Below, piece after piece: positions 50,558-54,995 of a DNA stretch of 60,455 nucleotides. Each line of letters begins with the position of its first letter. Position 1 is the first letter of the stretch. The position numbers and the translations under genes were made by a program. The DNA is from Patescibacteria group bacterium (GTDB lineage: Bacteria > Patescibacteriota > Microgenomatia > JAMCZE01). Under the pieces are notes generated by a model. It did no database searches, was not told the origin of the DNA, and saw only the letters and a program-made list of their open reading frames with translations. Location of the stretch: positions 1 through 60,455 of the forward strand of contig JAMCZE010000001.1 in the NCBI GenBank assembly GCA_023485845.1. Direction: 5' to 3'.

Positions 50558-50846
50558 GAAGATTCTGGCCGCGGTCATCGGACTATTAATTATTATTGCC
50601 TTAATTATAGCGGCAAAGTGGACCGGTGACCAAATCCGGCAAAAGTTTTTCACCCCAAAAACTCCGACCATGGTCGAGCAGACCGTGCCGGCACAACAAA
50701 CTCAACCGTTAGCGCAAAACTCACCGACGGCAACTTATTCGGCAATTCCCTCCACCGGCCCGCGCGAAGACGCGATGGTTCTTTTGGTGTTTTTTGCCTT
50801 AGCGGGTGTGGTTACATTGCGGTTTGCCAAGTCGCCAACGGCTTAA
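50541..50846 (+). CDS. Small protein with N-terminal TM and C-terminal IPSTG-TM-basic (sortase-like) signal
   Basis: ...AIPSTGPREDAMVLLVFFALAGVVTLRFAKS; TATAGT 7 nt before the revised ATG. Confidence 0.7.
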   Translation: MAETLRKILAAVIGLLIIIALIIAAKWTGDQIRQKFFTPKTPTMVEQTVPAQQTQPLAQNSPTATYSAIPSTGPREDAMVLLVFFALAGVVTLRFAKSPTA

Positions 50847-51342
50847 GACAGGTGTCGCTGCTATAGACATAGCGAAAAATCTGGCTCCCTGCTTGCCAAT
50901 AAAGATCGCTTTCCACCCCGTTAGTTTTAACAAAGGTGTATTTCACCGCCGAAAGGCTACTGACTTTGGCCCCGAATTTCCACTGCAGAAGAATATTTTT
51001 GGCGGTTTTAAATTCCACCTGGTCGACTTTTTGGGATGATTTTAACAATGTTAACTGACAGGAGATCTTGTCGGGACTAAGAAAGACCACTTCTTGTTTC
51101 TCATTATCGCCTGGTGCTTTCTCTTGGGCCGTCCAATCCGGCGGATATTGGATCTGATAATGATATTTGGTGCTGACAAAGGTCGGCCAGTCGGGATGGG
51201 TGGCAGCGTCAATAATTGTTGTCCCCGTCCAGAGCTGGCGCAAAAAATAGCCGGCAACCAGTCCCAAAATCACGATTAAAACAATCGCTAAAGGAGTCTT
51301 TTTAACAACAACAGTCACAATTCCATTATATCTGTTACTCAA
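50812..51342 (-). CDS. Single-TM protein with PsbP-like domain (putative); start uncertain
   Basis: TM, then W.TF....Y.Y.IQYP.DW. Confidence 0.6.
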   Translation of the reverse strand: MSNRYNGIVTVVVKKTPLAIVLIVILGLVAGYFLRQLWTGTTIIDAATHPDWPTFVSTKYHYQIQYPPDWTAQEKAPGDNEKQEVVFLSPDKISCQLTLLKSSQKVDQVEFKTAKNILLQWKFGAKVSSLSAVKYTFVKTNGVESDLYWQAGSQIFRYVYSSDTCLKPLATWQTAM

Positions 51343-51366
51343 AAAATTTGTTTAGACCGTTGCTTA

Positions 51367-51395
51367 TTGACAATTTGACTAACAATGACTATAGT
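51367..51395 (+). promoter_or_regulatory. Promoter of the SipW/TasA-like operon
   Basis: TTGACA-17 nt-TATAGT, then a ~100-nt leader and GAGGGGGTGA RBS. Confidence 0.75.
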
Positions 51396-51503
51396 AAGTA
51401 TGCTGAGAGATAACTGATATTAATTTTCCTGCCCGGCAAAAAATATGCCGAATAAAAATCCTCAAATATTTCTCAATCTTCTGCCGAGAGGGGGTGAAAA
51501 TTA

Positions 51504-52106
51504 ATGAAGCGGATTTTATTAAGCTTGGTAATGATTCTTGCCGCAGCGACAATGGTTGCTGGTGCAACACGAGCCTACTACACGGATTCAGTGACCTTAT
51601 CGGGAATCACTTTTTCAACAGGTAACGCTGACCTGAAGCTTACCCAGATCATTACACATCAATGGTGGGACGGAACAGTTTCTTATACAACCCCCGCCGA
51701 CAGTGGTTGGACCACCTATGCTTCGGGACAATTTAGTGAAACAAATTGGTATCCCGGACAAACAGTCACTGATGGATTCTATGTGGGTAATTTCAGCACT
51801 GCACAGATCGGGCTTACACCCACTGTTTCCTTAACGGGTTACTCACAGAGTGTTGGGGGAATGGATAACGTCTTCCTGATGAGAATTCACGGTACTGGCT
51901 ATGATTCTGGATGGCAGACAATCAATTGGTGGCGGAATAATTCCTTCACCATGCCCAATATTGCGTGGGTAGCAGGTACACCTCCCAATCCAAATGGGAG
52001 CTACTCTGGATATATTGATGTCCAGATGGATCCGAGCGCTGGTAATTCCTACCAGAGCGCGGCGATGAGCTTTAACCTACTGTTTAATGCGGCACAAACA
52101 CCGTAA
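51504..52106 (+). CDS. TasA/camelysin-like protein with SipW-cognate signal peptide (putative major fibre subunit)
   Basis: MKRILLS...GATRA-YYTDSVTLSGITFSTGNADL; NWYPG; MDPSAGNSYQ...F.L.F.A.Q. Confidence 0.8.
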   Translation: MKRILLSLVMILAAATMVAGATRAYYTDSVTLSGITFSTGNADLKLTQIITHQWWDGTVSYTTPADSGWTTYASGQFSETNWYPGQTVTDGFYVGNFSTAQIGLTPTVSLTGYSQSVGGMDNVFLMRIHGTGYDSGWQTINWWRNNSFTMPNIAWVAGTPPNPNGSYSGYIDVQMDPSAGNSYQSAAMSFNLLFNAAQTP

Positions 52107-52122
52107 TCCGTAGGCTTTAGCT

Positions 52123-52152
52123 GGGTTGCACAAGGGGGACTTTGTGCAACTT
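52123..52152 (+). other. Intergenic stem-loop after the TasA-like gene
   Basis: gggttgcacaagg-ggga-ctttgtgcaactt, with no U tract. Confidence 0.6.
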
Positions 52153-52162
52153 ACTAAGTCCT

Positions 52163-52738
52163 ATGAGAAAAAATCTTAACGCGTTGCTGAAGAAGACTAA
52201 GCAATTTGCCCCATATGTATATTGGGGAATATTTGTTGTACTTGCAGCAATTGCCATTTTGGTAGCATTGTCTGGCATCAACACGCCTTTTAAAATAAGA
52301 GTTTTTAGTGTTCAATCGGGGTCAATGAGTCCAGCAATTCCTACGGGTAGCGTTGTGATTGTCCGACCAGAGACTGACTATAAGAAAGGTGATGTTGTTA
52401 CCTTTAAGTACTCCCAGGACCGCGAGTCTAAAAATCCCAAAGAGACCGTAACTCACCGAATCGTTGAGGTTAAAATAATTGATAGCAAAGTCTCTTACAT
52501 GACAGAAGGTGACGCTAATAAATCTGCCGATCCAACCCCAGTCGACAAGGATCTGGTGATTGGCAAAGTGGTCTTGTCGATCCCTTTAATTGGTTATCCA
52601 GTGGGGTTCGCGAGGACTCTGCCGGGCTTGATTTTGCTGATAATTATCCCCGCAACAATAATTATCTATAGTGAACTGGTGAACGTAAAGAAAGAGATTG
52701 GGAAACTTCTTAAACAACGTGCCAAAAATAAAAAATGA
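52163..52738 (+). CDS. sipW: Signal peptidase I, SipW / ER type (Ser-His)
   Basis: VQSGSMSP.IPTGS, GDVVTF, VTHRIV, T.GDAN...D, VIGKV...IP.IGY. Confidence 0.9.
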   Translation: MRKNLNALLKKTKQFAPYVYWGIFVVLAAIAILVALSGINTPFKIRVFSVQSGSMSPAIPTGSVVIVRPETDYKKGDVVTFKYSQDRESKNPKETVTHRIVEVKIIDSKVSYMTEGDANKSADPTPVDKDLVIGKVVLSIPLIGYPVGFARTLPGLILLIIIPATIIIYSELVNVKKEIGKLLKQRAKNKK

Positions 52739-53808
52739 GAAATTCTTTTTTTAAATTACTGTTACTTTTCGTGATTCTCTTTGTCCCAACGATTGGGGGA
52801 AGTAATGCTTCATTTCTCGACTTTGTGACGTTATCTGGGATCACCATTACCACTGGTTGTTGGGTGGCGCCAACGGTGCCGGTGCCAGTCTACCCTGCCG
52901 ACCCAACCTATGCCGGGGCGGCTTCCGCTTGGAATCTCAATCCCTATTTCGACTGGACCGATTCCACCAGTTCTTGTCCACAGCACCCGGACATCGCCTA
53001 TGAGTTTCAAACCTCGGTGGACAGTGCCGGAAACACCGTGCTCTATACTTCCAATTGGATTACTGTTTCGCAAACGCCGCCCTTCAGTTTGCCCGACGGG
53101 GTCTATTATTGGCGCGTTCGGGCCCGGGATTCGTTCCATAACACCAGTGCCTGGTCGGCACCGGCGCTTTTGGTAGTGGACCGAGCGGCGCCGACATCAA
53201 CTTTCACTTCCCCGGTGCCCAACACCGATGTAACGGCCAGCCCAATTCATTTTGCCGGCAACACCCATGACGATTTTGGAGTGGTTAGTGTTGATTTGCT
53301 TTATAGTCAATATGCTGGCAGCTGCAATTCCAGCTATACCTTAATCACCACTTTGGTCAATTCTTCAGTGAGCAATGACTTTTCTTGGAGTTATGACTGG
53401 ACACCGGGTTCTTCCGGCAGCTACTGCTTGAAGGCCGAGGGCCAGGATCAGGCAGGTAATAAGGAGGCCAGTCCGGTGGTGGCTAACATTTCCTATCATC
53501 AAGCCGCTGATCCGGCGGCGGCACTAAGCCTTTCCGGCGATCAACACACAATTACTTTCACCGTTAATAATCTTGCTAACTTTAAACATCTGGCTTACCA
53601 GTTAACCTATGACACCAGCAGCGCCCCCCAGGGGGTGACGGGTGATTTTGATTTAAACGGTGACGTCAATGTTTCCCGGGACATTTTGTTGGGCACTTGT
53701 TCCACCGGCGGAACTTGTGTTTATTCCCTCGGCAGTAAGAACTTCGTTTTGACGGTGATGTTGACAGACAGCGGTGGGGCAACAACAAGTCTTAGCGCAC
53801 ACTTATGA
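52735..53808 (+). CDS. SipW-cognate protein with FN3/Ig-like domains (putative tip or nucleator)
   Basis: GGSNA-SFLDFVTLSGITITTGCW; GVYYWRVRARD...N.SAWS; VDRAAP; DQAGN.E. Confidence 0.75.
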   Translation: MRNSFFKLLLLFVILFVPTIGGSNASFLDFVTLSGITITTGCWVAPTVPVPVYPADPTYAGAASAWNLNPYFDWTDSTSSCPQHPDIAYEFQTSVDSAGNTVLYTSNWITVSQTPPFSLPDGVYYWRVRARDSFHNTSAWSAPALLVVDRAAPTSTFTSPVPNTDVTASPIHFAGNTHDDFGVVSVDLLYSQYAGSCNSSYTLITTLVNSSVSNDFSWSYDWTPGSSGSYCLKAEGQDQAGNKEASPVVANISYHQAADPAAALSLSGDQHTITFTVNNLANFKHLAYQLTYDTSSAPQGVTGDFDLNGDVNVSRDILLGTCSTGGTCVYSLGSKNFVLTVMLTDSGGATTSLSAHL

Positions 53809-54995
53809 GAAAACTACTTCCTGTCATCTTGGGATTGACCGCCCTATTTTTTTTGTTTTTGCCGCGGCCAACTTTGGCAGCGGACCTGACAGTTAGCTGT
53901 AATGACAGCGGTTGTTCTCCGGCCACCTCACCCAGCATCTTTCCCACCGACTTTTGGTTTCCCGGCCGCTCGGTCAGCCGGCAGGTGGCGGTGACCAACA
54001 CTGACAGTAACCCGTTGACGGTGAGTAATCAAGCTCAAAACACTGCCGTCACCGGCAGCTTGGACACAGTGATGCTGCTTTCCATTATTAGGGACAGCGA
54101 CAGCACGGTTCTTTGGAGCGGAACCTTGCATGATTTTTACAGTGCCGGAAATGTGCCTTTAGGGGTGTTGGCCGGCGGCCACAGTGAAAGTTTTGACTAT
54201 GTGGTGACGATGGATTCCTCGGCCGGAAATGAGTATCAGGATAAAGAGACCAGTTATGATTTAGTGCTCTATTTTTCCGGTGGAGCTGCACCAGCAACGA
54301 TAACAACTGGGGGCGGGGGGACGGTGGCCGGGGCATCCACGCCGGTTTGCAATGACACGGCGCCAGCCGGCGCGCCGGTGTTAACGGGCATTGTTGCCGG
54401 AACCAATAGTGTGACCCTGTTCTGGAACAAAGCCGCCGACCCGGTGACTTATTATTTGGTGGCCTACGGCACTGATCCGGCGGCCGACCAGTTTGGTAAT
54501 CCCAATGTTGGCGGTGCCGGCACGACAAGCTACACGGTTGGTGGTTTGTCCGGTGGTGTGACCTACTATTTCAAGGTCCGGGCGGGCAACGGGTGCGCGC
54601 CGGGACCGTTCTCAAACATTTTGTCCGTTACACCCGGCGGCGGAGTGGTTAGCGGCCCGGCAGCCGGATTTATCCCCGGTGTGTTGGGGGAAGCCACCCC
54701 TTCGGCGGTTTTGTCAACTCCCAGCGGCGAAACCAAAGGAGCGGCGACCCAAGCGGTTTGTTCCGAGTGCGTTTGGTGGCCATTTCTTCTACTTGAGGTC
54801 GTGACTCTAGCTCTTCTGATTAGAAAACGGTGGTTAGTCCGAGCCCTGGTCCCGGTTGCGGTCTTTATTCTTTGGTGGTTTGTCAACCGCTACGCCTGTC
54901 CAAACTTCTTTTGCCAGTGGTTTTGGCTGCTGGACATCTTAGTTTTTCTGCTGGCCATCCCGGTTGCAAGATGGCTTAGAAGGAGATTACAATGA
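53805..54995 (+). CDS. TasA-like domain, FN3 and C-terminal TM helices (putative anchor)
   Basis: WFPGRSVSR.V.V.N...MDSSAGNEYQ; FN3 SVTL.W...YTVGGL..G.TYYF.VRAGNGC; hydrophobic C-terminus. Confidence 0.75.
   Translation: MRKLLPVILGLTALFFLFLPRPTLAADLTVSCNDSGCSPATSPSIFPTDFWFPGRSVSRQVAVTNTDSNPLTVSNQAQNTAVTGSLDTVMLLSIIRDSDSTVLWSGTLHDFYSAGNVPLGVLAGGHSESFDYVVTMDSSAGNEYQDKETSYDLVLYFSGGAAPATITTGGGGTVAGASTPVCNDTAPAGAPVLTGIVAGTNSVTLFWNKAADPVTYYLVAYGTDPAADQFGNPNVGGAGTTSYTVGGLSGGVTYYFKVRAGNGCAPGPFSNILSVTPGGGVVSGPAAGFIPGVLGEATPSAVLSTPSGETKGAATQAVCSECVWWPFLLLEVVTLALLIRKRWLVRALVPVAVFILWWFVNRYACPNFFCQWFWLLDILVFLLAIPVARWLRRRLQ

Follow-up and report, generated by a model that had tools for sequence, protein, structure and literature searches.

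A candidate TasA-type fibre locus with a SipW-like peptidase, an apparent tip and an apparent membrane anchor in a Patescibacteria genome

Four genes and their predicted products

We analyzed a cluster of four genes in a Patescibacteria group bacterium (Microgenomatia; JAMCZE01) that lies within a window of 60,455 nucleotides, i.e., the whole stretch of DNA under study (assembly GCA_023485845.1, contig JAMCZE010000001.1, positions 1 to 60,455), in a host genome of 883 kb that is distributed over 14 contigs and is 96% complete. A first-pass annotation had described the cluster as a TasA-type fibre locus equipped with its own SipW peptidase, a tip protein and a membrane anchor, and the four co-directional open reading frames (ORFs) that it had placed on the plus strand at 51504-54995 were all present: gene 1 (51504-52106, +; 200 amino acids, aa), a predicted TasA-superfamily fibre subunit; gene 2 (52142-52738, +; 198 aa from a TTG start, an ATG in the same frame lying at 52163), an archaeal/endoplasmic reticulum (ER)-type signal peptidase I resembling SipW; gene 3 (52735-53808, +; 357 aa), a putative donor-strand-only protein; and gene 4 (53805-54995, +; 396 aa), a putative acceptor-only, membrane-anchored base protein. 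Genes 2 and 3 overlap by 4 bases, as do genes 3 and 4, suggesting that genes 2-4 are probably translated as a unit. The motifs that had been quoted for the translations were likewise located, namely YYTDSVTLSGITFSTG and WYPG...MDPSAGNSYQ in gene 1, FLDFVTLSGITITTG in gene 3 and WFPG...MDSSAGNEYQ in gene 4.

The product of gene 1 comprises a signal peptide (aa 1-24; predicted cleavage between ATRA and YY), a donor-strand segment (aa 25-40; 51576-51623, +) and a predicted jelly-roll body at about aa 41-200. An AlphaFold2 (AF2) model built on the alignment of its family, in which the N-terminal residues 15-40 were unplaced, had the TasA fibre as its best structural match (8aur_A; Z 10.6, root-mean-square deviation 2.4 Å, 130 aligned residues, 15% identity), with residues 40-200 of the model aligned to residues 42-234 of the chain, and Foldseek also matched the model to the TasA fibre (E 1.4e-4, prob 1.00). 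Further matches were the TasA monomer (5of1_B; Z 9.0), Hyper2 (Z 8.1), AbpA (7ueg_A; Z 8.0) and cannula subunits (Z 7.5-7.6); all of the top matches were subunits of donor-strand fibres, and the Fim, Pap and CFA/I subunits were weaker ones (Z 6-7.4). The TasA-like body proposed for gene 1 was therefore borne out. When a large protein collection was searched, 10 of 213 candidates, the query included, fell within E <= 0.001; two named homologues carry the label Candidatus Saccharimonadales, and 2 of the 10 proteins are annotated with PF12389 (TasA/camelysin, Peptidase_M73). Scanned singly at E <= 1, 8 of the 10 family members matched PF12389 (best 1e-11), and TIGR04088, the model for the SipW-dependent signal, was also matched by 8 of the 10 at that limit (best 2.4e-5). 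The family profile matched AbpX (9sj2_C; E 0.0012), a fibril protein of the TasA superfamily; as a single sequence, gene 1 matched no PDB sequence significantly (best E 0.2, to major histocompatibility complex chains). The donor-strand motif that follows the cleavage site is kept in 10/10 family members. In TasA the donor strand is formed by residues 28-38 (PMC9674648), and since the structural alignment starts at residue 40 of gene 1 and residue 42 of TasA, residues 25-39 of gene 1 occupy the place of the donor strand. With a modelled jelly-roll body and an N-terminal strand, gene 1 is TasA-like in both fold and family.

Gene 2 scored above the cut-offs of TIGR02228 (102.3 bits; cut-off 51.85) and Peptidase_S26 (29.7 bits; cut-off 22.9) and has two membrane segments. 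Of 30 homologues from related loci, at least 97% retain its SGSMxP, HR and GDAN..D motifs, and within these motifs S61 (conserved in 100%), H105 and D124 (97%) are presumably the catalytic residues. The assignment of gene 2 to the SipW type was thus confirmed. Against NF046067, the equivalog model for Bacillus SipW, gene 2 scored 103.3 bits and failed the cut-off of 190, and so, as judged from its sequence, it appears to be the same type of enzyme as Bacillus SipW and not an orthologue by that standard. A separate LepB-type peptidase (176 bits) is encoded at another place in the genome, indicating that gene 2 is a dedicated second enzyme, like SipW in Bacillus.

The product of gene 3 starts with a signal (aa 1-25) that is followed by a donor strand (aa 26-41; 52810-52857, +) and then by beta-rich, Ig/FN3-like domains. 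What genes 1 and 3 have in common is the signal peptide, a small-x-A site before an aromatic residue and the 16 residues that follow, after which gene 3 continues with C-W-V-x-P and then with a different beta-rich protein. Residues 11-42 of gene 3 aligned with residues 8-41 of the gene 1 family in hhalign (E 2.7e-4), in agreement with the earlier claim that the two genes carry matching N-strands, and the shared N-terminus could be aligned in 8 genome pairs. A profile of signal plus strand, with genes 1 and 3 both in its training set, was run over the genome's 4,971 ORFs and recovered these two genes only (E 1e-18 and 8e-16, respectively; next best 0.019), and a TIGR04088 scan of gene 3 gave no match. 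Over 8 genomes, the gene 3 strand resembles the gene 1 strand of its own genome (mean identity 0.46) more than those of other genomes (0.36; permutation p 0.009), in favor of a link between the two proteins. Regarding the Ig/FN3 domains with which gene 3 had been credited, the protein is beta-rich and, from its sequence, likely contains them, although every Pfam match was below threshold (Big_13, 25.6 against 27; Big_3_3, 21.3 against 27; Big_7, 20.5 against 24.1); its look-alikes in the atlas were led by fn3/Big_13, all below 0.9. Orthologues of gene 3, which are 287 to 808 aa long, keep the strand and the first domain but differ in the domains that follow towards the C-terminus. By analogy, gene 3 may work like TapA, AbpB or TafC.

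Gene 4 encodes an ordinary A-x-A signal (aa 1-25), a body like that of gene 1 (aa 26-159; 53880-54281, +), an FN3 domain (aa 183-281; 54351-54647, +) and three membrane helices (aa 325-395; 54777-54989, +) that are followed by a basic C-terminal tail. An hhalign comparison of family profiles aligned residues 41-155 of gene 4 with residues 72-194 of gene 1 (98.0%, E 2.4e-13), and comparison of the single sequences gave 89%, and by BLASTP 32% identity over 135 aa (E 5e-5), so that the likeness of the two bodies noticed in the first pass held up. The mature N-terminus of gene 4 is the D-L-x-V strand, which in gene 1 comes after the donor strand, and the presence of this start, behind an ordinary A-x-A signal, in 16/16 aligned homologues indicates that the donor strand of gene 4 is missing by descent and not through a mis-called start. 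The FN3 domain was matched both in Pfam (fn3, 34.9 bits) and by the model (Z 12.1 to 4n68_A), and the helices span residues 325-340, 344-364 and 373-395 in the AF2 model, with hydropathy peaks at 321, 343 and 369. These alignments, domain match and helices agree with the description of gene 4 as a protein that has no N-strand and carries FN3 and C-terminal transmembrane segments. We found no LPXTG-type motif in gene 4, no NCBIfam family that matched it at E <= 1 and no usable match for its C-terminal membrane region in the atlas. Of 15 homologues from the same family or class, 12 have a hydrophobic anchor at the C-terminus, and one of the three exceptions is truncated by the end of its contig; among 21 gene 4-like proteins at the level of the phylum, 12 have such an anchor, and in 4 of these it directly follows an LPxTG-type motif. 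The body of gene 4 is paralogous to that of gene 1, and by analogy the protein would work like TafF.

The gene 4 family shows some features of its own. A P-x-(V/I)-L-G-x-x-T motif (within 54650-54780; about aa 283-325 of gene 4), positioned 20-40 residues before the membrane segment with its W-W-rich start, is conserved in the family, matched no known family and may be a processing or sorting signal. The three-helix tail contains conserved Cys pairs and recurs in distant classes (loci L022, L077, L079, L081 and L082). Short gene 4-like proteins with an LPVTG, LPETG, LPATG or LPTTG motif right in front of the hydrophobic segment at the C-terminus (L066:5792-6421, L071:5450-6076, L076:6949-7596 and L068:6049-7209) would, by their sequences, be sortase-anchored versions of the base in other Patescibacteria. 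The host genome encodes two sortases (contig C1:31475-31861 and contig C10:211510-211914), and two small secreted proteins (C9:14807-15421, +, and C11:9745-10398, -) that end in YPATG/LPATG, a hydrophobic segment and a basic tail are likely their substrates. These two proteins matched the gene 4 profile weakly (E ~1e-4) and were set aside as LPATG/YPATG-ended surface proteins outside the system.

Gene order, fusions and expression signals

To place the cluster among its relatives, we considered the surroundings of gene 4 homologues. In 14 loci from the same family or class (13 relatives), a peptidase on the same strand was present in 12, a TasA-like gene in 10 and a gene 3-like gene in 6, and the two loci that lacked a peptidase both end at a contig edge. 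When an even sample of 401 genomes from the phylum was searched with a profile of the gene 4 N-domain at E <= 1e-5, 44 genomes (39 of the 339 of good quality) gave a match, some of these matches falling on TasA-like subunits. Loci fetched from matching genomes had the order TasA-like, peptidase, gene 4-like in 19 of 20 cases; the synteny across Patescibacteria that had been put forward as a check was thus observed for the subunit-peptidase-base order. Two full subunit-peptidase-base sets lie next to each other, in tandem or divergently, in L020 (G034:C53; 2200-8301), L066 and L071.

The peptidase ORF is long in 10/21 phylum-level cases, its frame continuing for 345-640 aa, and in at least 8 of the 10 long ORFs the extension consists of a second hydrophobic segment or signal, a donor-strand motif and further domains. 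Such in-frame fusions of SipW to a putative tip (L017:954-4472, -; L028:6907-9339, -; L077:7493-9115, -; L063, L064, L065, L072, L073, L075 and L078), of which L017 and L028 are within the family, tie the peptidase to the strand-only protein. In L080 (6048-7376), the partner fused to the peptidase is a body like that of gene 4, with a membrane segment at its C-terminus.

Upstream of gene 1 we located a sigma-70-like promoter sequence, TTGACA-17 nt-TATAGT (51367-51395, +), that is a consensus match only; with a score of 11/12 it was the top one of 10 sites in 50700-56200, where shuffled sequences average 4.6 sites. It is followed by a purine-rich, Shine-Dalgarno-like stretch, GAGAGGGGGTGA (51486-51497, +), whose end lies ~7-9 nt before the ATG of gene 1. 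The spacer between genes 1 and 2 contains a stable RNA hairpin (52107-52168, +) with a folding energy of -32.9 kcal/mol (z -6.5), and 0 of 200 shuffles folded equally well. All the elements that the first-pass annotation had named, i.e., promoter, ribosome-binding site and stem-loop after gene 1, are therefore present, but the hairpin is not followed by a T-run, the scan made no intrinsic terminator call, and the hairpin overlaps the likely start ATG of gene 2 (52163). A hairpin 3' of the subunit gene is kept in position among relatives (z <= -3 against mononucleotide shuffles in 19 of 28 spacers). This conservation is consistent with a surplus of the major subunit, or a lower output of the downstream genes, as had been proposed from the stem-loop, and does not prove it.

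Directly after gene 4 lies a gene (54996-55880) whose product has a CAP/YkwD domain (78 bits) and, at the C-terminus, a membrane segment, and downstream of it a gene for an 82-aa membrane protein (55877-56125). The two genes accompany the locus in 9 of the 14 family and class loci and are found within a few kb of it in 5 of the 20 phylum loci.

Proposed assembly and alternative readings

To relate the parts to one another, we considered a predicted complex of gene 1 (residues 25-200) and gene 4 (residues 26-162), each partner being supplied with its own alignment. The runs scored 0.60, 0.76 and 0.47 (median 0.60), whereas three controls scored 0.00 at best. Of 80 solved complexes, 58 passed the mark for such scores, as did 2 of 110 mismatched pairs, and those that passed it with scores at or under 0.60 were 7 of the 80 solved complexes and both of the passing mismatches. 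Agreement between the runs extended to at least 94% of the contacts, and the pLDDT of the partner was at least 89 with gene 1 and 74 when gene 1 was replaced. Hence, the multimer check that had been suggested for genes 1 and 4 came out above its control and, as a prediction, weakly supports their pairing, with no interface reported.

A SipW-processed subunit that bears a strand, a protein that shares the strand only and an anchored body that has no strand make up a parts list that is supported by homology, fold, gene order and the peptidase-tip fusions. The reading that we prefer, and consider fairly probable, is that the four genes together make a TasA-superfamily fibre that depends on SipW, is assembled by donor-strand complementation and is rooted in the cytoplasmic membrane; thus, of the tip-shaft-anchor pilus proposed in the first pass, the parts list stands, while the pairing of genes 1 and 4 is weakly supported. 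The cleavage sites, polymerisation, polarity and stoichiometry that we infer would be as follows. SipW would cut the products of genes 1 and 3 behind their small-x-A sites, just before the aromatic residue, and gene 3 would insert the strand thus released into the groove of the gene 1 subunit that comes first, in the way that TapA does with TasA. Each gene 1 subunit would then hand its own N-terminal strand to the next subunit, until a gene 1 strand enters gene 4, which would stop growth, as gene 4 would have a groove and no strand to pass on. In this way gene 4 would both end the fibre and hold it in the membrane, with its FN3 domain as a spacer, and the variable Ig-like domains of gene 3 would end up at the distal tip. 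A surplus of subunit over accessory proteins would result from the promoter together with the conserved hairpin behind gene 1. A role of the fibre in host attachment is our guess, taken from the lifestyle of the phylum.

Several results weigh against this membrane-rooted fibre. For gene 1, the protein itself scored 14.7 bits against PF12389, over residues 10-47 only and below the cut-off of 22.5; the SipW-type signal and N-strand that had been assigned to it are upheld by the position of the strand and by the TIGR04088 matches in its family, but its own TIGR04088 score (12.4 bits) does not reach the cut-off of 19; and its AF2 model is of moderate quality (pLDDT 63.1, with the body above 70 from about residue 80). 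For gene 3, no TapA-related family was among the Pfam and NCBIfam matches at E <= 1, and the greater likeness of its strand to the gene 1 strand of its own genome comes from a small sample of 8 related genomes. For gene 4, PF12389 was matched by 0 of the 16 family members, searches with the full model (Foldseek and VIA-align) were filled by FN3 and tandem Ig matches, and the N-domain profile gave nothing significant against PDB sequences (best E 0.051, to Nesprin; AbpX 0.63); the claim that this N-domain is TasA-like is therefore upheld by its similarity to gene 1 and not by the Pfam model for TasA. The prediction for genes 1 and 4 came with no interface that would reveal strand insertion, and its score may reflect the likeness to solved TasA-type fibres on which the predictor could draw. 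At the level of the phylum, 357 of the 401 sampled genomes gave no match to the gene 4 N-domain profile, and 9 of the 21 gene 4-like proteins have neither a membrane nor a wall anchor, indicating that the strand-less body is not always an anchor and that the polarity could differ.

The likeliest alternative is that the fibre is shed into a matrix, like the Bacillus TasA scaffold, and that gene 4 is a membrane-tethered holdase or assembly platform that binds a strand transiently, either preventing premature polymerisation or handing subunits to the growing fibre. The same homology and fold evidence applies to this arrangement, TasA fibres are mostly matrix-borne (PMC9674648), the anchor-less 9 of 21 proteins fit it, and the weak complex score suits transient binding equally. 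We nevertheless consider a shed fibre unlikely, because great stability has been described for the donor-strand complexes of the TasA superfamily, 12 of 15 family or class homologues and 12 of 21 at the level of the phylum are anchored at the C-terminus by membrane helices or LPxTG, and an FN3 spacer suits a stalk more than a chaperone.

The anchor-less proteins also bear on the direction of the fibre. By labels assigned by eye, 6 of them end in Gly/Asp-rich repeats that look Ca-binding and 3 in another domain. Gene 4-like proteins of the former, Ca-repeat-like kind are found at L025:6726-7763, L027:1351-2382, L063-L065, L069, L072 and L075, and those of the latter kind, with a GDGLDN.GDH...WGDD motif, at L066:9190-10497, L071:8824-10131 and L073:6805-8205. 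In Fim and Pap pili the tip adhesin is the groove-only subunit, and a gene 4-type protein could similarly form the end that is assembled first (FimH-like, with a groove, no strand and an extra domain) with gene 3 capping the other end, which would make the strand-less protein a distal adhesin in some lineages. The 9 of 21 proteins that carry these C-terminal domains in place of a membrane segment favor such a reversal, as do the strand-only proteins that are often made as fusions to a membrane peptidase. In the locus studied here, however, gene 4 ends in three membrane helices and a basic tail and thus cannot be distal, and it is the variable domains of gene 3 that differ most between relatives, as expected of a tip; we regard a reversed polarity as very improbable. 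Least probable of all is that no fibre is made and that genes 1 and 4 encode beta-sandwich proteins of the surface or the medium, for instance a surface coat or a protease of the camelysin type, that share a peptidase. In favor of this are the name of the Pfam family, Peptidase_M73, and the score of gene 1 below its cut-off. Against it, the best structural matches of gene 1 are fibre subunits, a strand that is common to genes 1 and 3 and absent from gene 4 has no obvious purpose beyond strand complementation, and a camelysin-type protease was set aside for gene 1, in which no metal-binding motif of the HExxH type was visible by eye.

Patescibacteria live attached to other microbes, and to our knowledge only type IV pili have so far been tied experimentally to this attachment. 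A compact four-gene fibre with an exchangeable tip would be a reasonable candidate for adhesion to cells or surfaces in part of the phylum. One could go further and propose that these episymbionts possess, besides type IV pili and without dependence on them, a second organelle for attachment in the form of a polar TasA-type pilus rooted in the membrane. The variable tip domains of the strand-only protein would then pick the host surface, and in the many lineages where tip and peptidase form one polypeptide, cleavage and nucleation of the fibre would be coupled at a single site in the membrane; we think this unlikely, slightly more so than a shed fibre. The peptidase-tip fusions could help to show how nucleation and secretion are coupled, and the locus offers a minimal bacterial test case for the model of a tip, a shaft and a membrane terminator.

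Comparison with known fibre systems

The cluster resembles the tapA-sipW-tasA operon of Bacillus subtilis in that a dedicated signal peptidase of the archaeal type lies beside its own substrates, and in that the major subunit combines a jelly-roll body with an N-terminal donor strand (PDB 8AUR). The second protein, like TapA, has only the N-terminal strand in common with the subunit (PMC9674648; PMC10151520), and the first strand that TasA receives comes, as shown or modelled, from TapA (PMC10151520; PMC9674648). In contrast to Bacillus, the Patescibacteria locus has the subunit gene first, its gene 3 is without a detectable TapA domain, its gene 1 is 15% identical to TasA in the structural alignment, and it contains a strand-less, membrane-spanning paralogue of the subunit, for which Bacillus has no counterpart.

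With chaperone-usher pili such as Fim and Pap, the locus shares donor-strand complementation of Ig-like subunits and specialised end subunits; unlike them, it has neither a chaperone nor an usher, belongs to a monoderm-type envelope and would have the opposite polarity. It also resembles the archaeal bundling pili and their bacterial relatives: the gene 1 family profile matches AbpX (E 0.0012) and the gene 1 model matches AbpA (Z 8.0). In the archaeal bundling pili, AbpB has been proposed as the starter, with adhesin domains at the distal end, and the same paper remarks on PF12389 homologues in Patescibacteria (PMC9245690). Beyond that remark on distribution, our searches of the literature turned up no account of such a fibre locus, of the TasA type, in Patescibacteria, although supplementary files may list such loci. 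Bacterial AbpX-like clusters are reported to contain a peptidase, minor subunits, tip proteins and anchor proteins of the SLH or LPXTG type, and AlphaFold3 places these anchor proteins in donor-strand oligomers (preprint 10.64898/2026.01.04.697558). The putative anchor of gene 4 is a polytopic membrane tail and not an SLH or LPXTG region, and gene 2 is of the two-helix SipW type, whereas the AbpX peptidase has ten helices.

By its architecture, the locus can also be compared with the haloarchaeal Tafi system, in which the model comprises TafC as tip, TafE as adapter, TafA as shaft, TafF as anchor and TafD as peptidase (PMC11821415; PMC12337348). In both systems a strand-donating tip would start the fibre and a membrane-spanning, pilin-like protein would terminate and anchor it: the pilin-like N-domain of TafF accepts the last donor strand, its C-terminal region spans the membrane and its signal is of the Sec and not the Tat type (PMC11821415), the roles of TafC and TafF resting, as the authors state, on AlphaFold models (PMC11821415). 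The anchor thus has a signal unlike that of the pilins, and here, similarly, gene 4 has an A-x-A site and genes 1 and 3 a SipW-type site. Tafi differs in being archaeal, in its Tat export and in having an adapter subunit and a DUF5305 accessory protein. A model of tip, shaft and membrane anchor has thus already been published for Tafi (TafC/TafA/TafF) and for TapA/TasA, and the Patescibacteria locus follows this known logic; apart from its use as a test case and from its peptidase-tip fusions, specialists in TasA-type fibres or archaeal bundling pili would not be surprised by it.

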